A DNA stretch of 64,000 nt from an uncultured Oscillospiraceae bacterium (GCA_947632175.1 CANROC010000014.1:25918-89917), one strand, 5' to 3'. Numbered from the stretch's first letter, positions 2,210 through 11,012 are shown. Made by a program: numbers and translations. Notes: a model not told the origin generated them from the letters alone.

Positions 2210-3505
2210 TCACCCGCAAAATTCCGCCACGGCGGCGGCGTACATCTGGCCGGCCAGCATAAGCTGGGCGACCTCCACGCGCTCGTCGGGCTCGTGCATC
2301 CGCACGTCCGCGCCGGGGAACTCCGCGCCGAAAGCCACGCCGCCGTCGATCTCATGGACGTAGGTGCCGCCGCCCATGGAAAACGCCTGGCCCGGCTCGC
2401 CGGTGTAGTCCTCGTAGATCCTGAGAAGCCCCCGGACGAAGTCCGAGTCCGCCGGCGTGTGGTGGGGCCTGGAGAGGGAGAGGATTTGGAGCTCCACGCC
2501 CTCCAGCGCGCGGGCGAACCCGTCCGCGATGGCGTTCCCGTCGCCGCAGACGGGGATGCGGCAGTCCACGTCGGCCCGCAGGCCGGTCTCATCGACCTTC
2601 AAAACCCCCAGATTCACCGTCAGCTCCCCGGAGAGCTCATCCCGGCAGGTGACGCCCACGGCGGACCCGTTCACGTCCCCGTGGGGGAACGCCCTTTGCA
2701 GGGCGCGGAAGACGTCGAAGCCCGGTCCCGGCAGGGCGGCGAGCTTTTCGATCATCCGCGTGGCGGCGTTGTCGCCCTCCTGGGGCAGGCTCCCGTGGGC
2801 GGCGCGGCCCACCGTCTCCAGGCGCGTGCCGTCGGACAGCACCGCCTCGCACCGGGCGGGGACGGCGTTGGGCACGGACCCGCCGGTGAGGCTCACCACG
2901 TGCAGCTCTTCGCCATCATACGCCGGGGCCGTCAGCGTGAAGTGCATCCGGCCCTTTTCCGTATTCGCCACGGGGAAGGACCCGTCCGGCGTGAACACCT
3001 TGCCCGGGACGGGGTAATGCTCCAGATACCACGCAAGATCCGAGGACCCGCACTCCTCGTCGGACCCCAGCAAAAGCTGGACCTTTCGCTTCAAAAGCCC
3101 CAGCTCCCGGGCGCACAAGATCGCCCACAGGGACACCACCGCCGGCCCCTTGTCGTCAATGACGCCTCGGCCGTAGATCCGCCCGTCCAGCTCCCGCATC
3201 TCATAGGGCGCGGTGACGGTCCACTCCCCCGCCGGGGGCACCACGTCCAGATGCGCCAGCAGCGCCAGCTCCGCCTCGCCCTCGCCGGCCTCGATGACCA
3301 GCATCCGGTCGCCGCGAATCTCGCCGGAAAGCCCGTGCTCACGGGCGATGGCCAGCGCCTCGTCCAGCGCCCGCCTGGGCCCCGGCCCGAAGGGCGCGCC
3401 GGGGGCGCTCTCCCCCCGGACGCTGTCCACCGCCACGAGCCGCCGGATATCCGCCAGAATCGCGGCGCGGTTCCTCTCAAAAAACTCCACGATACGCTGT
3501 TCCAT
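2210..3505 (-). CDS. M20 family metallo-dipeptidase (PepV/Sapep-like)
   Basis: Motifs LAHLDVVP, GRGVIDDKGP and SDEECGS are present. Start placed at ATG 3505 (MEQRIVEFFE...), preceded by GGAGGGG; the longer ORF to 3652 lacks an RBS. Confidence 0.85.
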   Translation of the reverse strand: MEQRIVEFFERNRAAILADIRRLVAVDSVRGESAPGAPFGPGPRRALDEALAIAREHGLSGEIRGDRMLVIEAGEGEAELALLAHLDVVPPAGEWTVTAPYEMRELDGRIYGRGVIDDKGPAVVSLWAILCARELGLLKRKVQLLLGSDEECGSSDLAWYLEHYPVPGKVFTPDGSFPVANTEKGRMHFTLTAPAYDGEELHVVSLTGGSVPNAVPARCEAVLSDGTRLETVGRAAHGSLPQEGDNAATRMIEKLAALPGPGFDVFRALQRAFPHGDVNGSAVGVTCRDELSGELTVNLGVLKVDETGLRADVDCRIPVCGDGNAIADGFARALEGVELQILSLSRPHHTPADSDFVRGLLRIYEDYTGEPGQAFSMGGGTYVHEIDGGVAFGAEFPGADVRMHEPDERVEVAQLMLAGQMYAAAVAEFCG

Positions 3506-3589
3506 AGTTCCCCTCCGCTGGCAAAATTTCTTTCCGACCCCATTATACCACACCCTTTTCCCCTCCGCAACCCACTTCCAGAACTTGTC

Positions 3590-3611
3590 TAAGACACGCG
3601 TAAGACACAAA
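3590..3611 (+). promoter_or_regulatory. tandem TAAGACAC motif, copy S1 (candidate recombinase arm-type or regulator site)
   Basis: taagacacGCgtaagacacaaa. It matches the 24-25 nt cores at 6362-6386 (opposite strand) and 7584-7608 with 3 mismatches. Confidence 0.4.
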
Positions 3612-3711
3612 CGCCGAAAAAATCCGCCGCCAAGTGTTCCGATTTCCGCCAAATCAAGCCTAAAATATGCCCTTTTCCCGCCTCAAAAGTTCTCCCTCCC
3701 CTCCCCCGCCG

Positions 3712-3816
3712 TTTTATTAAGGAGGAAACACTACATGAAGACTCTGAAAAAGACCCTGTGCTTGGTCTTGGCGGTAGTCATGGTAGTCGGCGTGCTGATC
3801 TTACCTGCCAGCGCGG
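3712..3816. repeat. IR-L, left arm of a perfect 105-bp inverted repeat
   Basis: Base-by-base reading shows 3712-3816 is the exact reverse complement of 10265-10369. It covers AAGGAGG, the ATG (3735) and codons 1-27 (MKTLKKTLCLVLAVVMVVGVLILPASA). Identity stops abruptly on both sides. Confidence 0.95.
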
Positions 3817-6236
3817 TCGATGCTACTGCCACGGTCGAGTACGACGAAGAGGCCGCCAACTTGCTCCAGGGCATGGGCATTCTCCTGGGCGACGAGGACG
3901 GCGTAAGCCCCGAGAAGGCGGTCACCCGCGCTCAGGCTGCCACGTTCATGGCCCGTCTGGTCGCGACCCCGGCGTTTATGGAGACCTTCTCCAGCACCAG
4001 CACTCCCTTTACGGACTGCGGCGGCGTGGCATGGGCTGTTCCGTCCATCGCTTACTGCTTTGCCCAGCACATTCTCCAAGGCACCGACAAGGGCTTTGAG
4101 CCCGATCGCGGCGTGACCGGACATGAGATGGCCAAGATGCTTCTGTGCGCCATGGGCTACGACGCGGAGAAGGAAGGCTTCATCGGCGTCACCTTTGAGA
4201 CCAACGTCGAGATCCTGGCCAACAAGACCGGCGTCAGCAAGGGCATCAAGAACCTGAAGGCTCCCCTCATTCGCGCTGACGTGATCACTATGATCAACAA
4301 TGCGCTGAATGCCAAAATGGTTTGGTACGGTGAAAACGGTAAGGCCCAGGAATACGAAGATCAAAGGACCCTTTACACCGAGACTTATAAGGGCCAGGTC
4401 CTTTACGGCGTTGTTGTAGGCAACCAGGCTACCGGCCTTAAGGGAACCAATCTTAAGAAGATTAAAAACGCAATCACCGATGATATTCTTTCTTTCGAAG
4501 ACAACCCTGTCCTCTACAACATTGAGACTGGCCTCGACATGATCGGCCACGTTCTCAAGGTCTACTACGCGGACGCTGAGACCGTTTACCTTTCCGAGGA
4601 CGCCTCTGAGCTGAAGACCGTCAAGGATGTTGCTACTGCCGATATTGAAGCCAAGATTGGCAAGAACATGCAGAAGGGCTATGTGATTAACGATTACAAC
4701 CCTGTCATGAAGAGCGGCGGCGAATGGACAGTTGATGGTACCGGCAGCTACATCGTATTCAACGGTAAGGTTGTTGCTAAGTTTGGCACCACCTCTTACA
4801 CCCTGACCAAGGTCACCGATATCGATGCCACCAAGGGAACCGTGACCCTCGATAGTACTGGCCTTACCCTTGCTGAAGGTGAAACTCTTGCTGCGCTCAG
4901 CAACAATGCCACCAAGGACATTGTTGATGAGTACGAGGGCATGAAAGAGGAAGATGTCGTCGCCTACTACAAGACCGGTACTGTCTATCACATCCTGCCT
5001 GTCCAGAAGGTCAGCGGCAAGCTCGAAGGAATCGGCGCTACGACCCTGAGCATCGGCGGCAAGGCTTACCAGCAGGCTGGCGCAGCAGTGAAGTCCTATA
5101 AGGATGCGGACAAGACCACCTCCCTCAGAACAACCGCTAACTTCACCGACTCCTATGACCTTTACATTGTTCCTGACGGAAGCAACAGCTACTACTTCGT
5201 TGCTACGCTTACGCCCGGCGCTACTGAGCCCACCCCCGCAGATGACATTGTGTACGCGGTAGCCAAGTATGCGATTACTGGTGCCGTTGATGCCTATGGC
5301 AAACCGGGTGCGACCAAGTACTATGTCCAGGCTCTTGAGCTGAATGGCGATATTCGTATTATTGAGGTTGCCAAAGCGACTTACGACGGGTTCACAGATG
5401 GGGATGGTAAGATCATGGCACTTAAGAAAGTCGTTCCCGCTGCCAGCGCGACTACTTATCCCACTTTCGAAGATCTCACAAGCAAGTGCTATAATGCAAA
5501 CGGTCCTCTTGCAGCTACTGCCATTAAGTTTAATACCAACCACTACTTCACCAGCGATGTTAAGTTTATCTATGTCAATGGCGTTCTTGGTGATTTGAAT
5601 CCTGAAATTAAAACTGGCGTTCAGGCTATTAAAGAGAACGTACCAATGGAGTACGTTGCTATCCAAGTCGGCGATACACAAAACTACACCGTCAGCGTCG
5701 TGTTCGTTGAGAAATCTTCCAAAGACGCTGCAGCTACGCCCGAACCTCCTAAAACCGTTTACAAAGAGGTCGTGTTTGCTAACGAGGCTGGCGACTCCAC
5801 CACTCAGGCTCCTTACGCCGCTTCTGCTGATACCACAGGGTCTGGTTATGTCCACACCGTTTACATTGACGGCGTGAAGACCGAAATCCTCACTGCTGAT
5901 AAGACTAAGTTGACTGGCTTCTACACGATCAGCGATAAGGTTGACCGGCTCTATACCCTTGCTAGAGCCACTGAGCAAGAGAATCTGATTGGTGGTTCGA
6001 CTGGTTACAAGGTCGAAAACATGTATAGCGGCTTGATCACTCTTGCGTCTGGCAGCAATGTCACTGACGTTCCTGTGACTGGCGCTACCGTGGTGAATCT
6101 GACAGATAAGACTGTTCCCACGAATCCTGCTGAGCTGAACGAGAAAGATACGGTCTGCATGGTTGTGACCATTGATGCGACCACCGAAGCTATCACTGGT
6201 ATTGTTACCATCTACGTGATTGCTTCCGAGCGGTAA
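3735..6236 (+). CDS. SLH-domain cell-surface (S-layer-like) protein, variant A
   Basis: 833 aa. It has a signal peptide, then N-terminal SLH-like repeats (...AVTRAQAATFMARL..., ...GFEPDRGVTGHEMAKMLLCAMGY...), then a long Thr/Val/Lys-rich beta-type region. RBS AAGGAGG. Visibly more AT-rich than its neighbours. Confidence 0.85.
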   Translation: MKTLKKTLCLVLAVVMVVGVLILPASAVDATATVEYDEEAANLLQGMGILLGDEDGVSPEKAVTRAQAATFMARLVATPAFMETFSSTSTPFTDCGGVAWAVPSIAYCFAQHILQGTDKGFEPDRGVTGHEMAKMLLCAMGYDAEKEGFIGVTFETNVEILANKTGVSKGIKNLKAPLIRADVITMINNALNAKMVWYGENGKAQEYEDQRTLYTETYKGQVLYGVVVGNQATGLKGTNLKKIKNAITDDILSFEDNPVLYNIETGLDMIGHVLKVYYADAETVYLSEDASELKTVKDVATADIEAKIGKNMQKGYVINDYNPVMKSGGEWTVDGTGSYIVFNGKVVAKFGTTSYTLTKVTDIDATKGTVTLDSTGLTLAEGETLAALSNNATKDIVDEYEGMKEEDVVAYYKTGTVYHILPVQKVSGKLEGIGATTLSIGGKAYQQAGAAVKSYKDADKTTSLRTTANFTDSYDLYIVPDGSNSYYFVATLTPGATEPTPADDIVYAVAKYAITGAVDAYGKPGATKYYVQALELNGDIRIIEVAKATYDGFTDGDGKIMALKKVVPAASATTYPTFEDLTSKCYNANGPLAATAIKFNTNHYFTSDVKFIYVNGVLGDLNPEIKTGVQAIKENVPMEYVAIQVGDTQNYTVSVVFVEKSSKDAAATPEPPKTVYKEVVFANEAGDSTTQAPYAASADTTGSGYVHTVYIDGVKTEILTADKTKLTGFYTISDKVDRLYTLARATEQENLIGGSTGYKVENMYSGLITLASGSNVTDVPVTGATVVNLTDKTVPTNPAELNEKDTVCMVVTIDATTEAITGIVTIYVIASER

Positions 6237-6272
6237 AGCATTCAGCCCATCATTACCCCCTAACACGCACCT

Positions 6273-6301
6273 CCGGCCCCCGGGTTCATCCCGGGGGCCG
6301 G
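6273..6301 (+). terminator. intrinsic terminator of SLH variant A
   Basis: ccggcccccggg-ttcatc-ccgggggccgg followed by atttttgccttttt. Confidence 0.8.
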
Positions 6302-6361
6302 ATTTTTGCCTTTTTGGTGTGTTTCCACGTGGAAACACAGCTCGCGTCGGAACCTGTCGAA

Positions 6362-6386
6362 ATTTGTGTCTTACGTGTGTCTTACC
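6362..6386 (-). promoter_or_regulatory. tandem TAAGACAC motif, copy S2
   Basis: The reverse complement reads ggtaagacacacgtaagacacaaat, identical to 7584-7608. It abuts the recombinase stop codon. Confidence 0.4.
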
Positions 6387-6391
6387 GTTTT

Positions 6392-7477
6392 TCAACCCAC
6401 GGCGTAGGCGACCTTGTCTATCTCGCGGAGGAGCTCCGGGAGGTCCTTGTGGGTGTAGCGGTCGGTGACGTCGCGCTGGGAGTGGCCGACGATGAAGCGG
6501 AGGGCGCCGGGGCGGACGCCGGCGGTGTCCAGGGCGGAGACAAAGGTGTGGCGCGTGTCGTGGGGCGTGTGGGGGAAGCCCAGGGCGGCGGTGACCCGGT
6601 CGAACCAGCCGTATTTGTAGCTGGCGTAGGTCATGGGCTCCCCGTCGCGGTCGGTGAGGAGCGACTGCTCCCCGGCGCGGGCGAGCAGCGCGGCCATGAC
6701 GGGGACGATCTCCCGGTGGAGGGGGACGCGCCGGCGGGCGGCGCGGGTCTTGGTGCCCCGGAGGTTGATGCACCGGCGGTCCATGTCCACGTCCTCCCGC
6801 CGCAGGGTCAGCAGCTCCCCGACCCGCAGGCCGGTGTAGAGCAGCAGGAGCACCGACCCCAGAAGCCCCAGCCCCCGGAAGCGCGGCGCCTCCCCCGGCA
6901 CCTCCGCCCCGGACCGCCACAGCCGCCAGAGGGCGTCGATCTCCTCCGGCGTGAAGACCCGCCGGGGCGTGTCGGAGGCCTCGGCGGTGAGCTCCACGAA
7001 CTGGCTCCAGTCCCGGTCCACGATGTTGCGCCCCATGCCCCAGCGGTAGATCATGTGCATGAGCGACCGGACCTTGGACTGGTACCCCCGGCTGCGGTCC
7101 ATGCGGTTGATGACGTTCTGGAGCTGCGTCACCCGCAGGTCCCGCAGGGGCACGTCCCAGATGGACCGGCAGAAGACCATGGCGCAGCTCATGACCTTGC
7201 CGGTGGATGGGAATTTGAGGTAGTAGTCCGGGCTCCACTGTAAGTAGGCCTCCCGGAAGGTCACGCGGCGCGCGTCGGTGTCGTAGGGCGAGCGGTTATA
7301 CTGCGCCAGGGCCATCATGGCCTCCGACCGCGTGGCGTAGTAGCCGATGGTTGCGAAGCTCTGGAGCGGCCTTTGCCCCTCGCGCTCCGACCACCCCACC
7401 GTCACCCGCGCCCGATAGGGCCGCCGCCGCGCCCCCGGCAGCTTCGTCACGCCGCCGTACCCGTTTGGATTTTTCAT
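6392..7477 (-). CDS. tyrosine-type site-specific recombinase/integrase with N-terminal arm-binding-type domain
   Basis: Catalytic signature is intact: ..YTGLRVGEL.., HTPHDTRHTF (HxxR), GHSQRDVTDRYTH (Tyr). The N-terminus (GGVTKLPGARRRPYRARVTVGW...IGYYATRSEA) resembles the integrase Arm DNA-binding fold. Start is ATG 7477 after GGGAGG; the track start at 7483 is a TTG. Confidence 0.9.
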   Translation of the reverse strand: MKNPNGYGGVTKLPGARRRPYRARVTVGWSEREGQRPLQSFATIGYYATRSEAMMALAQYNRSPYDTDARRVTFREAYLQWSPDYYLKFPSTGKVMSCAMVFCRSIWDVPLRDLRVTQLQNVINRMDRSRGYQSKVRSLMHMIYRWGMGRNIVDRDWSQFVELTAEASDTPRRVFTPEEIDALWRLWRSGAEVPGEAPRFRGLGLLGSVLLLLYTGLRVGELLTLRREDVDMDRRCINLRGTKTRAARRRVPLHREIVPVMAALLARAGEQSLLTDRDGEPMTYASYKYGWFDRVTAALGFPHTPHDTRHTFVSALDTAGVRPGALRFIVGHSQRDVTDRYTHKDLPELLREIDKVAYAVG

Positions 7478-7583
7478 GGTCAAACCTCCCTAATAAAGAT
7501 GTAAGGAGATTATCCCACTTTTCCCCCGCCGATAGTATCCCCAATCGCGGAAGTTTTAGTCTGGAAGAGTGTGGTTTTTTCGG

Positions 7584-7608
7584 GGTAAGACACACGTAAG
7601 ACACAAAT
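7584..7608 (+). promoter_or_regulatory. tandem TAAGACAC motif, copy S3
   Basis: ggtaagacacacgtaagacacaaat, about 100 bp upstream of the recombinase start. Confidence 0.4.
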
Positions 7609-7668
7609 ACCGACAACCTCCGGCGCTGTCCCGGTTGCCGCGTGGAAACACATATGAACACAAAAAAT

Positions 7669-7721: not shown

Positions 7722-10346
7722 TTAGTCTTTGATTTCCTCGAGGCCAGTGATGACGATAAGGGTGATGTAATCCACGCCATTCACCTTTTCGGTGTAGTAG
7801 CTGACCGTAACCTTATTCTTTGTCAGGTCAGTGGGAAGCGCGCCGACAGTGGGCCATACACCAGCCTTGTGGGCGTCAACAACGACACAAGGCGAACCAA
7901 CTTTAACGGGATCAGCCTCATCTTCACCCTCTGCATTCTTAAACAGGATGTAGGAAGCAGTAGCGAAAGATATTACCTTATTCTTATTCGTGCATGCGAC
8001 AGTGGCAACGGATTTAAGCTTGCCGTCCTTGAGGGTAAGCTTATACACCTGCCCCAAGTTGCTCGTGCCAGCACTAACTGCAGTTGTAATCGCAGCGGCA
8101 TCGGTGTTGTCGGCAACATAGGTCTCGACCTTACCGCCAACGATGAAGCTGAAAGACGTACCGGTGAGGGTCTGCTCGCCCTGGCCAACAAAGATCGCAA
8201 GATCAGTCGGCTCGAGAGTTTTCTCGTCCGATGCGGACGTACCCTTAAGAATCACATAGATATCGGTGGCCATCTTCTCATTCTTGCTGTCGGTGAGGAC
8301 GATTGCCTTATCAACATTGGTACCAGTCAACGCCGGGAACTGAGTATAGCCGGTATACTGAGTGGGAGTGAACTTGTCATCAAGGTGATCCGCGTCAGTA
8401 CCAGACGTGTGAGTAAACACGGTGAGCTTGGTCGTCTCGGACAGATAGAGCGCAGTACCACCAATGGTCATTGTAAGAGCGCCCTTTGTATAATCAGAAA
8501 CGGTCTGGCTCGTCACAGCCTCGCCGAGCACCATCTCACCAGCGGCATTCTCCTCATACTTATAGAAGCCAGCTTCAAACGTGTTCTTGTTCGAGCCAAT
8601 CTCGTTAGTGTTGGCCTGGTGCCCATCTTTGTCGGCGAGATAGTACTTGACACCAGTAGCATCTGCGACACTGTAGAGCGGAAGATTCACGCTGGAAACC
8701 TTACCGGTAGCAAGATCCATCACAACCGCAACAGCCATAGCGGGCTTCTCGGGAGAACCTGCAGTCACGTTGCCGAAGATATCAGTCTTGGCATCCACGG
8801 CATCTTCGTGCTCCTGCTCTTTGTAAGAAAGAAGGTAGGTGTACTTCACTACAGAAGTGGTCTCAGGAGCCTTCTCGGCCGCAACATTGATGATGTTCCC
8901 GTTGTTGTCCAGATAGAAGTTATACTTGGTATCGGCACTGACATTCAATTCGACAATGTCAAGTGTGTCTTTCACGGGAGTCGCAACGGCCTTGTATATC
9001 TTGCTGGTATCGCCGTTGATACGAATGTAGGTATTTGTATCGACATCCGTGCCCTTGCCGGTGATAGTGCCATTGAGGACGGTAGCCACATAGGGCTTGC
9101 CAACAACGACAGTCTCGTCCTTCGCATTCTTGCCGGTGTTGTAAACAACGATATCGCCCTTCTTGGCCTCAATCTTGACGGTCAACGCGGTTGTGCCAGA
9201 ACCCTCAAGGGTCAGAACGCCGTCCTTGTAGTTGGCTGTAGCGCCCTCAGTCACAACAGGTTTATACTTGTCATTAACACGAACGATGTAGTAGACATCG
9301 GTCTTTGCAGTACCGCCTTCCGGTATCTCCTTGACGGTATACACGGTGGTAGTGCTGCCGATAGCGCAGGCAGACGAACCTTTGTCATTGGTAAAAGGCT
9401 GAGCCTTATACTCACTACCAAACGGCGTGCTATTGGAGTAGTAAGACGGAACACCGTCCACAAAGTACTTCGCGGGCATATCGGCCGGAGTGGCCTTGTC
9501 GCCCTTGATGTCCTTGAGAATGTCGCCAAAGGTCTTGGCAGTGTTGTAGGTCTTCACAGCCGTGGCATAGGTGGTGTAGACAGCCTTATCGCCCACCGTA
9601 ACGACGTATGTCTCGGGGACACCGATCTCGTTGTGACCAACCTCGGCTTCCTCAACATCGTAGCCGTTCTGGCTGTTCAGGGTGAGGGGTTTGTTGTCAG
9701 CGCCGGTGCGGTCAGCAAGCTTGCCCAGATTGTCGTAGCCGACCATGGTGGCGTTCAGGGCGTTGTAGGCCATCTGAGCCATGTTGTCGCGGGTGAGGTC
9801 CTCGTCATACTCGAAGTCCTCGATGCCGTCGTCCAGCTTCACGGTCAGGGCGCGGCTGATGACGTTGACATCCCAAAGATTGCCGATGTAGCCCTCGGTC
9901 ACGGCATCGTAGCCCAGCGCGCAGAGGAGCATCTTGGCAAACTCGGTGCCGGTGACGTTGTCATTGGGCTCAAAGCCCTTCTCGGTGCCGTTGATGATGC
10001 CCTGGGAAGCGGCGAAAGCAATGAACCCAGACGCCCAGTCAACGGTCTTGTCGCCGTCCACATCGGCAAAACCGGTCTTGCCGGCGGGATACCGCGCGGC
10101 AATGGCGGGGGTCTGCAGCAGCTTGGTGATGACCGTCGCCGCCTCAGCGCGGCTCAGGGTATCGCCGGGACGGAACCCCTCCGCGTCGCCCGTGAGGATC
10201 TTGAGAGCTGTCAGCACTTCAACAGCCTCTTTGTGGGTGATCTTCGCGTCGTCCTCGTAAGTCGCCGCGCTGGCAGGTAAGATCAGCACGCCGACTACCA
10301 TGACTACCGCCAAGACCAAGCACAGGGTCTTTTTCAGAGTCTTCAT
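7722..10346 (-). CDS. SLH-domain cell-surface (S-layer-like) protein, variant B
   Basis: 874 aa. The first 27 codons are identical at DNA level to variant A, and the sequence diverges after that. SLH-like repeats (..TLSRAEAATVITKLL.., ..GFEPNDNVTGTEFAKMLLCALGY..). Start is ATG 10346 after AAGGAGG. Confidence 0.85.
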   Translation of the reverse strand: MKTLKKTLCLVLAVVMVVGVLILPASAATYEDDAKITHKEAVEVLTALKILTGDAEGFRPGDTLSRAEAATVITKLLQTPAIAARYPAGKTGFADVDGDKTVDWASGFIAFAASQGIINGTEKGFEPNDNVTGTEFAKMLLCALGYDAVTEGYIGNLWDVNVISRALTVKLDDGIEDFEYDEDLTRDNMAQMAYNALNATMVGYDNLGKLADRTGADNKPLTLNSQNGYDVEEAEVGHNEIGVPETYVVTVGDKAVYTTYATAVKTYNTAKTFGDILKDIKGDKATPADMPAKYFVDGVPSYYSNSTPFGSEYKAQPFTNDKGSSACAIGSTTTVYTVKEIPEGGTAKTDVYYIVRVNDKYKPVVTEGATANYKDGVLTLEGSGTTALTVKIEAKKGDIVVYNTGKNAKDETVVVGKPYVATVLNGTITGKGTDVDTNTYIRINGDTSKIYKAVATPVKDTLDIVELNVSADTKYNFYLDNNGNIINVAAEKAPETTSVVKYTYLLSYKEQEHEDAVDAKTDIFGNVTAGSPEKPAMAVAVVMDLATGKVSSVNLPLYSVADATGVKYYLADKDGHQANTNEIGSNKNTFEAGFYKYEENAAGEMVLGEAVTSQTVSDYTKGALTMTIGGTALYLSETTKLTVFTHTSGTDADHLDDKFTPTQYTGYTQFPALTGTNVDKAIVLTDSKNEKMATDIYVILKGTSASDEKTLEPTDLAIFVGQGEQTLTGTSFSFIVGGKVETYVADNTDAAAITTAVSAGTSNLGQVYKLTLKDGKLKSVATVACTNKNKVISFATASYILFKNAEGEDEADPVKVGSPCVVVDAHKAGVWPTVGALPTDLTKNKVTVSYYTEKVNGVDYITLIVITGLEEIKD

Positions 10347-10369
10347 GTAGTGTTTCCTCCTTAATAAAA
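10265..10369. repeat. IR-R, right arm of the perfect 105-bp inverted repeat
   Basis: Exact reverse complement of 3712-3816. Confidence 0.95.
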
Positions 10370-10549
10370 ATTGTTGATGAAATTTTCGCCCGTTACATGA
10401 ACCGGACTGTTTATTATGTAAACGCCGGACCGGAGCCGGTCGGCATATACACCGTGGTTTTTGCTCGTTACGCCCTTTTGACTTTACCGCCGGGTCGTTT
10501 GTTCCCTTTTTATTCACGAAAAATTTTAGAAATTTTTCTAAAAGGAGGA

Positions 10550-10597
10550 GTACGGCGGAGATCCGCGGTTGGGCGGTTCCGAGAACCTCCGCCGTAC
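10550..10597 (-). terminator. terminator-like hairpin inside the variant-B leader (possible attenuator)
   Basis: On the minus strand: gtacggcggag...ctccgccgtac (11-bp stem) followed by tcctcctttt. It lies about 135 nt downstream of the predicted TSS and about 200 nt upstream of the ATG. Confidence 0.35.
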
Positions 10598-10738
10598 ACT
10601 TGCATAATGAAGACTGTCACCGCCCCGCGTGCTTTTCGGAGCGGATCTGTCCGACCCTGCCTTGAGCTGCGGCCCCTGGGGCCTGTCCGGGGGGTCCTCC
10701 CGGCCGAAAACCGGGCGTACCTTGCGGACGTTGGATAT

Positions 10739-10767
10739 ATTCTAGCACATGGCGCGGCCAATGTCAA
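10739..10767 (-). promoter_or_regulatory. sigma-A type promoter upstream of IR-R (expression site)
   Basis: Minus strand TTGACA (10762-10767), 17 nt spacer, tgcTAGAAT (10739-10744) with an extended -10 TG. This predicts a leader of about 385 nt. Confidence 0.6.
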
Positions 10768-11012
10768 CATTTTGGGGAAAATAAGTTACAAAATCGTAAC
10801 CTGGCCGGAAGTGCCGGAAATTCCTAGAGCGCCAAGGGGTTTGGGGTTTGGCTCATTTTTCCTCGCGGAAAAAATTTTAAAAATGTAACAAAAAATATCA
10901 GAAATTTTTTGAAACGCGTCGGATTTTTCCCCGAGAGACGAACCCCAATATAGTCATTTTACTCGTTTTACACGAATTTGCAAGTCTTTTTTTCAAATTT
11001 TTTGGAGTTTTT

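Follow-up and report, generated by a model that had tools for sequence, protein, structure and literature searches.

Tandem octamer pairs at an invertible SLH surface-protein locus of gut Oscillospiraceae: probable arm-type sites of a domesticated phage integrase

The recombinases FimB/FimE, RecV, HvsR and Rci are simple two-domain enzymes, and inversion of the sap genes of Campylobacter fetus is RecA-dependent. Integrases of the Tn916/Tn1549 family carry an Arm-DNA-bind domain that binds tandem 11-bp repeats near both ends of the element (DR2-type repeats). The attP record of phage lambda likewise contains tandem arm sites of 10-11 nt (AGGTCACTAT, CAGTCAAAAT and AAATCATTAT), of which P1 lies about 138 nt from the core. 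Tyrosine recombinases have been divided into simple two-domain enzymes and those with an arm-binding domain, the best characterised of the latter being integrases of phages and of integrative and conjugative elements (PMC8138268). Proteins with SLH domains are enriched at predicted programmed inversions, in a study whose text does not contain the word 'arm' (PMC9881135). Here we analyse a 64,000-nt stretch of DNA (hereafter, the window) from an uncultured Oscillospiraceae bacterium (GCA_947632175.1, CANROC010000014.1:25918-89917), in which a tyrosine recombinase gene stands between two genes for SLH-domain surface proteins and three copies of a tandem octamer motif are placed around this switch. 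We estimate a probability of roughly 0.7 that these pairs serve as arm-type sites to which the recombinase of the switch binds through its N-terminal beta3-alpha domain; the enzyme itself would be a domesticated temperate-phage integrase.

The locus consists of SLH gene A (3735..6236, + strand), the recombinase gene (6392..7477, −) and SLH gene B (7722..10346, −), in this order. The ribosome-binding site (RBS) and signal peptide of gene A lie within a 105-nt inverted repeat, IR-L (3712..3816, +), which is 100% complementary to IR-R (10265..10369, −), the equivalent repeat at the gene B 5' end. The right flank carries the best sigma-70-type promoter of the region, TTGACA-17-TGnTAGAAT (10739..10767, −), about 390 nt upstream of gene B, and has no octamer pair; we denote it the E-flank, for expression, and the left, motif-bearing flank the S-flank. 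No forward promoter comparable to that of the E-flank was found on the S-flank. In the present orientation, gene A is on the promoter-poor, arm-bearing flank and gene B on the strong-promoter flank.

The unit of the motif, TAAGACAC-N3-TAAGACAC, is a direct repeat of two octamers, 11 nt from start to start. A first-pass annotation of the window had described this repeat and its 3-nt spacing, and both the sequence and a pattern scan agree with it. Two of the copies that it listed, GGTAAGACACACGTAAGACACAAAT at 7584-7608 (+) and its inverted counterpart at 6362-6386, were confirmed by reading of the sequence, the latter being the exact reverse complement of the former. The third copy, given as 3590-3611, is a genuine site but its end was off by one: TAAGACACGCGTAAGACACAAAC occupies 3590-3612, with its end 103 nt short of IR-L (start at 3712). 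The outer S-flank pair proper, TAAGACAC GCG TAAGACAC (3590..3608, +), faces the block AAGGAGGAAACACTACATG, with its start 128 nt away. The rec-downstream pair (6366..6384, −), which is also the 3' pair of gene A, is 7 nt past the recombinase stop codon, and the rec-upstream pair (7586..7604, +), also the 3' pair of gene B, is about 110 nt upstream of the recombinase start. Whereas the S-flank pair is outside the invertible segment, both recombinase-linked pairs are inside it.

The motif is rare. When up to two mismatches were allowed, the pattern had exactly three matches in the 64 kb, against 0.00 in 100 shuffles; with three mismatches, all additional matches were weak, and one of these (6306-6323) is near the switch. 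Pattern scans with two and with three mismatches found no copy of the motif on the right flank (10370-11010). A genome-wide search of the kind that the first-pass annotation had proposed, run on the whole assembly (3.54 Mb), returned five copies only, against none for the reversed pattern, and all five are at the ends of SLH cassettes or beside the recombinase. The two copies outside the window are on contig C4, where they bracket, in inverted orientation, a third SLH gene with the same 105-nt 5' block.

We read the pairs as docking sites of the arm type because identical repeats adjoin the genes that encode phage relatives of the recombinase. Outside the genus, the closest homologues of the recombinase (about 35-42% identity) are prophage and phage integrases, whose genes have helix-turn-helix repressors, ERF and replication genes, or lysis genes as neighbours. 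In all six phage and prophage loci that were read, at least two tandem pairs with an 11-nt period follow directly after the integrase gene (int). Four integrase-linked phage loci (L116, L120, L124 and L125) have the same motif as the window, three of them with an exact 18/18 match. In prophage L116 (integrase P0028), GTGTCTTACGTCCGTCTT and GTGTCTTACGTGTGTCTT follow int, and GTGTCTTACGTGTGTCTT matches the window motif in 18 of 18 positions; in L120 (integrase P0036), GTGTCTTATGTGTGTCTT and GTGTCTTATGTGTGTATT are 242 nt apart, and the half-site variant in GTGTCTTATGTGTGTATT is that of the genus consensus. A related form, GTGTC(T/A)C, occurs in L117 (integrase P0032), and other repeat words, of the GCGACAT or TAGTTAC types, are found in the same arrangement in L115, L118 and L119 (integrases P0030, P0029 and P0038). 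A scan of IMG/VR for the exact 18-mer yielded five contigs, two of which (L124 and L125) encode an integrase homologue and carry two pairs, 209 and 187 nt apart, the nearer pair being 12 and 47 nt past the int stop codon. The three other contigs, which belong to one unrelated phage group and have no integrase nearby, were taken as chance or unrelated matches. Across the four motif-bearing loci, the nearest pair is 1-47 nt after int, and the two pairs are 33 nt apart in L116 and 187-242 nt apart in L120, L124 and L125. Such a two-pair arrangement after int is the architecture of attP arms, and integrases related to the switch recombinase have the same motif, a related form or other pairs with an 11-nt period beside int, as expected of arm-type sites.

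The similarity between these enzymes is unevenly distributed. Overall, the motif-sharing phage integrases are 28-42% identical to the recombinase, but the N-terminal domain (N-domain) is 65% identical in P0028, compared with 29% for the core-binding and 39% for the catalytic domain; the corresponding N-domain values are 56% for the L124 integrase (28% overall) and 54% for the L125 integrase (30% overall). This difference suggests that arm specificity was kept while core specificity changed, that is, the domesticated integrase would have retained the arm specificity of the phage while its core-binding domain diverged. Given the shared motif and the concentration of identity in the N-domain, enzyme and motif appear to have been inherited together from a phage attP/int module. 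If the sites are indeed of the arm type, the coat switch is probably a multi-site machine in the style of lambda rather than a simple flip.

The structure of the recombinase is compatible with this assignment. The 361-aa protein is a three-domain integrase of the Tn1549/lambda type, with an intact set of catalytic residues (R218, K243, H306, R309, H332 and Y341). Sequence and profile searches against solved structures placed Tn1549 Int first (profile E = 4e-29), with lambda Int among the matches, and the alignments with both begin only at residue 72-75 of the recombinase. The proposed arm-binding (beta3-alpha) domain comprises the preceding residues 1-66, encoded at 7280..7477 (−). In an AlphaFold2 model built with 61 homologues (mean predicted local distance difference test score, pLDDT, of 90), three strands (residues 9-12, 21-32 and 35-47) and a helix (50-62) precede the core-binding and catalytic domains, which is the layout of arm-binding domains, and Foldseek aligned full-length lambda Int with the model over its whole length. 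Among the 61 homologues that can be aligned in full length, eight match PF14657 (Arm-DNA-bind_4); in all three that were checked, the match covers residues 21-57 and is above the curated cut-off. The resemblance of the N-terminus to an Arm DNA-binding domain, which had been noticed at the first pass, is thus in agreement with the three-domain alignment, the predicted fold and the matches of the homologues.

Orthologues of the recombinase (56-95% identity) were found in 17 of 36 sampled genomes of the genus and, later, in one more (G061). The genomes are mostly metagenome assemblies broken at repeats, and related species are non-independent samples. In all 13 loci with readable flanks, the recombinase stands between two SLH genes whose 5' ends carry inverted repeats. 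The genus-wide form of the motif is AA(K)ACAC-N4-AAGACAC, with the consensus AATACAC GCG CAAGACAC. A degenerate pattern gave 58 matches in 38 genus genomes, against six for the reversed control, nearly all of them at cassette flanks, and 17 of 20 further matches that were read outside the switch loci are at SLH cassettes. The cassette copies are of two types, one upstream, before the block AAGGAGGAAACACTACATG, and the other downstream, inverted and just past the SLH terminator; copies of the downstream type have no promoter context. The idea of a motif placed around the switch therefore holds, but not that of one private to the locus, because the pair marks every promoter-poor cassette flank in this genome and in the genus.

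The asymmetry of the flanks, which had been proposed from the lack of a copy on the right, is conserved as well. In the relatives, the flank pair is on one outer flank only, and the opposite, armless flank always has a conserved leader (about 400 nt) and a strong promoter, the latter 332-426 nt upstream of the block. The sole arm-like candidate on the strong-promoter flank, AGTCAAAAGGGCGT, was rejected, its distance to the block being variable (88-235 nt). When the window and the 13 relatives with readable flanks are considered together, the recombinase is directed towards the arm-bearing flank in seven loci and away from it in seven, so the segment has evidently flipped repeatedly. Across these flips, the flank pair stays in place, and the recombinase-linked pair moves with the segment.

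The position of the pair is conserved, too. The pair is present in 30 of 33 unique S-type flanks (switch flanks and stand-alone cassettes together), and in 29 of the 33 it starts 125-128 nt before the RBS/signal-peptide block. Between S-type flanks, pairwise identity is 79% for the pair and 34% for the spacer, in line with the outcome that the first-pass annotation had sought from an alignment of orthologous loci. Because the length of the spacer is held within 3 nt while its sequence is randomised, selection appears to act on the distance and not on the spacer sequence. The pair is also retained at orthologous switches, as had been asked of a functional site: 17 of 18 orthologous loci have the rec-upstream pair, which is directed away from the recombinase gene and separated from its ATG by 48-219 nt. 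The rec-downstream pair was seen in only five of the genus loci first inspected and has been lost from most species. This loss, along with the evident copying of the whole S-type flank module, including the neighbour's promoter, to stand-alone cassettes, is what would be expected if the pairs were inactive relics of an ancestral phage attP that were duplicated with the cassette flanks and homogenised by gene conversion. We consider such decay improbable given that the motif is far better conserved than the spacer, the spacing is fixed, and the rec-upstream pair persists in 17 of 18 loci at recombinase identities of 56-95%.

Motif, recombinase and multiple cassettes also tend to occur together. 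The 15 genomes with zero or one block have no recombinase and, with the exception of one stray match, no motif; among the 23 genomes with at least two blocks, the motif is present in 21 and the recombinase in 19. Two near-complete genomes that appeared to have the motif without a recombinase, G017 and G033, were set aside, since the S-flank and the E-flank are contig ends there and the middle segment was lost in assembly. In these genomes (contigs C11/C64 and C12/C25, respectively), as in many relatives, the metagenome assemblies break exactly at the 5' block; the middle segment can drop out of the bin, so that calls of recombinase presence or absence are unreliable in such genomes. In one species, G012 (contigs C53, locus L052, and C29, locus L111), the recombinase orthologue (65% identity) is not beside SLH genes and has no clear upstream pair, and the S-flank pair has drifted to AAGTCGC-N4-AAGTCAC.

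The site of strand exchange can be delimited by comparison of the two repeats, whose perfectly matching portion varies from genome to genome. The intersection of eight genomes leaves a stretch from −17 to +37 relative to the ATG (window 3718-3772, +) that is identical between both repeats, and the crossover must fall within it, this being the smallest repeat-identical stretch in all eight. The stretch includes a 6-8-6 dyad, AAGACC-CTGTGCTT-GGTCTT (3750-3769), which has the form of a tyrosine recombinase core and is a candidate for the core site. It also includes the 23-nt block AAGGAGGAAACACTACATGAAGA (3719-3741 and 10340-10362), comprising the RBS, the start codon and the first codons, which is identical in 80 of 81 copies from 32 genus genomes even though the recombinases there are only 56-95% identical. 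Conservation so far beyond the needs of an RBS suggests that the block is probably part of the recombination site. The same block contains GAAACAC-N5-GAAGAC, which loosely resembles the arm half-sites.

Could the pairs themselves be crossover sites, or form the repeated ends of mobile SLH cassettes? If so, exchange between inverted copies would flip the recombinase gene or a whole cassette, and the direct copies at 3590 and 7586 would allow gene A and the recombinase to be excised as one unit. Inverted copies do bracket gene A, the recombinase gene and the stand-alone C4 cassette, and an imperfect 125-nt inverted repeat surrounds the recombinase, its 25-nt core alone being 100% identical. The pair, however, is a direct repeat lacking the dyad symmetry around a spacer that tyrosine recombinase cores require, which makes a crossover within it unlikely; moreover, the phage pairs flank about 200 nt in the same orientation, an arrangement of arms and not of cores. 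Exchange at the 5' block with the flank pair fixed accounts for both states observed in the 14 species, and the purE-adjacent cassette is syntenic across the genus, with no coming and going at the motif boundaries. Taken as a whole, these observations render this explanation the most improbable of those that we weighed.

By reading of the sequence, a divergent promoter, TTGCGG-17-TGgTATAAT (3542..3570, −), is directed away from gene A, and the S-flank pair is about 20 nt beyond its −35 hexamer. Alignment shows that this promoter is kept on the promoter-poor flanks of the relatives as TTGAC(T/A)-17/18-TGnTATAAT; a conserved GTCAA upstream of the flank pair, which was considered as a forward −35 element, is more convincing in the alignment as the TTGAC −35 of the divergent promoter. 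In the relatives, a −10-like TAnAAT coincides in part with half-site 1 of the flank pair, and 17 nt upstream of this element is a −35 hexamer of the TTGTCA type. Occupancy of the S-flank pair may therefore also influence transcription of the S-flank. As a separate observation, copies of this strong divergent promoter accompany the flank module at stand-alone cassettes, where the neighbouring genes are different. In the window, the neighbouring gene (2210-3504) encodes what we take, by eye, to be an M20-type peptidase; a Pfam scan of the first 137 residues of its product matched no family.

These promoter contexts are what one would expect if the pairs were operators or activator sites for another transcriptional regulator, such as a winged-helix response regulator that recognises direct repeats with an 11-bp spacing. 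This protein would govern the recombinase gene, the divergent promoter and the weak cassette promoters, and the recombinase itself would not touch the pairs. The overlap of half-site 1 with the −10-like element, the fixed position next to the conserved divergent promoter on S-flanks and the recombinase-linked pair of G004, which is 31-48 nt before the recombinase ATG, all fit this explanation. Nevertheless, the same motif accompanies integrases in four unrelated phage contexts devoid of SLH genes, the 3' copies have no promoter context, and the distance at the recombinase gene varies between 48 and 219 nt. In addition, the genes of the locus include no linked regulator, and the motif is absent, but for one stray match, where there is a single SLH gene and no recombinase. 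We accordingly regard a separate factor as unlikely, albeit the best placed of the explanations that leave the recombinase away from the pairs or the pairs without an arm function.

Under the mechanism that we propose for the arm-type sites, each pair would consist of two half-sites of 7-8 bp in direct repeat, one helical turn (11 bp) apart, and strand exchange would occur inside the 55-bp block common to both SLH 5' ends (3718-3772 and its inverted copy). The S-flank site would be attP-like, with an arm and a core, the pair being held at a fixed distance of about 127 nt, or about 12 helical turns; the E-flank site would be attB-like, with the core alone, next to the strong promoter and the long leader. 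The N-domains would dock on both half-sites of the S-flank pair, and the spacer of about 12 turns would let the same or neighbouring protomers bridge to the core. The armless E-site could then be captured as attB by the attP intasome, in which case inversion would be expected to need the arm. Since the arm is outside the exchanged segment, every inversion would restore an armed and an armless partner, and the switch would be reversible without an excisionase or directionality factor. The inner pairs, which sit where phages keep the int-proximal arm, might provide further docking of N-domains for the synaptic tetramer by looping, or might serve in titration of the enzyme or in autoregulation.

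Several observations weigh against the arm-site interpretation, at least in its full extent. Separate short repeats at the distance typical of arms, tens to about 150 bp from the core, are represented by the S-flank pair only. The inner pairs, like the 3' pairs of stand-alone cassettes, are 2.6-3.9 kb from any crossover site and opposite in orientation to the int-proximal pair of the phages, so the classical arm role fits the S-flank pair alone; the arm-site proposal of the first-pass annotation accordingly stands for that pair and fails for the inner copies as classical arms of the inverted repeats. Furthermore, a single partner bears the arm, and on a single side of its core; we know of no characterised lambda-type reaction with such an arrangement. 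The recombinase's own N-terminus had no Pfam match, even at E = 10, and a model of residues 1-70 made without an alignment (pLDDT 69) gave only weak, non-significant AP2-like matches in Foldseek. Finally, the overlap of half-site 1 with the −10-like element and the adjoining divergent promoter make a purely regulatory role possible.

A broader scheme, which we consider possible though doubtful, would assign the pairs a function at every non-expressed SLH cassette, where they mark the 5' end at 127 nt from the core and often the 3' end too, the integrase using one DNA-binding domain both to recruit the armed cassettes and to silence them. In such a scheme, any armed cassette could be brought to the single armless expression site by an attP-like x attB-like reaction with no directionality factor, and armed cassettes would be kept silent through occupancy of their weak promoters or through looping between the 5' and 3' pairs. 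Were this true, the system would be a bacterial counterpart of silencer-flanked mating-type cassettes. The third SLH cassette of the genome (G000, contig C4:54558-57454; locus L006, 6558-9456) is located between a kbl-like gene and purE. It shares the 5' block, which is preceded at 127 nt by an arm pair, and its terminator is followed by an inverted pair; many species of the genus have the purE-linked cassette in a syntenic position.

Additional sequence features accompany the locus. Possible degenerate second pairs, AACACACCAAAAAGGCAA at 6306-6323 (−) and GAAACACATATGAACAC at 7647-7663 (+), are about 43 nt from each inner pair and recall the doubled pairs of prophage L116 and phage L119. Between the terminator of gene A and the arm pair is a perfect 20-bp palindrome, GTGTTTCCACGTGGAAACAC (6319-6338), with a half copy on the other side of the recombinase (7640-7655); GGAAACAC also forms part of the RBS block. 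In the relatives L036, L038 and L039, GTGTTTCC immediately precedes the RBS on S-flanks; by pairing with GGAAACAC, it could mask the RBS. In the window, a CT-rich run, TTCTCCCTCCCCTCCCCC (3690-3711), directly precedes the RBS on the S-flank and is complementary to the AAGGAGG Shine-Dalgarno sequence; it is a possible anti-Shine-Dalgarno element that would keep gene A untranslated on this flank. A weakly conserved element, AAA(A/T)GTTC(C/G)GAAAA, is present at 3630-3650 and in the S-flank spacers of the relatives, about 35-45 nt after the arm pair and in otherwise unconserved surroundings, and might be bound by an accessory or DNA-bending protein. The E-flank leader (10347-10738, −) contains the genus-conserved blocks GACAGTCTTCATTATGTAAGTGTACGGCGG...CGCCGTACTCCTCCTTT and GTCCGGCGTTTACATAA...GTCCGGTTCATGTAACGGGCG, which suggests a structured 5' untranslated region. 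In several relatives, the reverse complement of CGGCGTTTACATAA is about 25-35 nt from the rec-upstream pair.

The signature described here, a tandem pair with an 11-bp period 127 nt from a conserved 5' block, could guide searches of metagenomes for expression sites and silent cassettes. The coat proteins are likely to be phage receptors or host-facing antigens, so that the rate and control of switching are relevant to gut ecology.

Among known systems, lambda Int offers a close analogy for the layout of the sites. Its arms (P1, P2 and P'1-P'3) are tandem half-sites with a 10-11-bp period that are served by a separate N-terminal beta-sheet domain, as we propose for the switch; the distance from P1 to the core (about 138 nt) is similar to that from the S-flank pair to the block (about 127 nt), and the half-site AAG(A/T)CAC resembles the (C/A)AGTCAC of lambda. 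In lambda, however, arms are on both sides of the core of one partner and direction is set with IHF, Xis and Fis, whereas the switch has a near-core pair on one side of one partner, no linked Xis-like gene and, as its outcome, a reversible chromosomal inversion. Tn1549 Int matches the core-binding and catalytic domains best, in both structure and sequence, and the Tn916/Tn1549 family shares with the switch recombinase an N-terminal Arm-DNA-bind domain; but these integrases excise and integrate a mobile element through a circle, and the switch has no element, only two fixed chromosomal sites. The temperate phages of gut Clostridia (L116, L120, L124 and L125) have an identical or nearly identical motif, GTGTCTT-N4-GTGT(C/A)TT, with 54-65% identity in the N-domain and pairs beside the integrase. 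These phages have two pairs in the same orientation around a presumed core, directly after int, in contrast to the switch, where the pairs are dispersed and the one after the recombinase stop codon is inverted.

In biological function, the switch is similar to the S-layer switches of Lactobacillus acidophilus (slpA/slpB) and C. fetus (sap), in which two alternative genes likewise take turns behind one strong promoter through inversion at a conserved 5' region, and S-layer gene inversion switches as such are already known. It differs from them in using a three-domain integrase of the phage type with conserved accessory sites. FimB/FimE, RecV, HvsR and Rci also control surface structures by site-specific inversion, but the recombinase described here, unlike these simple invertases, has an arm-binding domain and yet serves a chromosomal switch. 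Characteristic of the present case are the combination of a three-domain integrase with conserved arm sites in a genus-wide chromosomal switch and the placement of the arms on one partner and on every spare cassette. Integrases that bind arm sites are usually regarded as typical of mobile elements, and chromosomal phase variation is attributed to simple two-domain recombinases (PMC8138268). A genus of gut Oscillospiraceae appears to have taken a phage integrase and its arm sites into a surface-coat switch in which one partner is armed, which would provide a concrete route from a directional phage reaction to a reversible switch.

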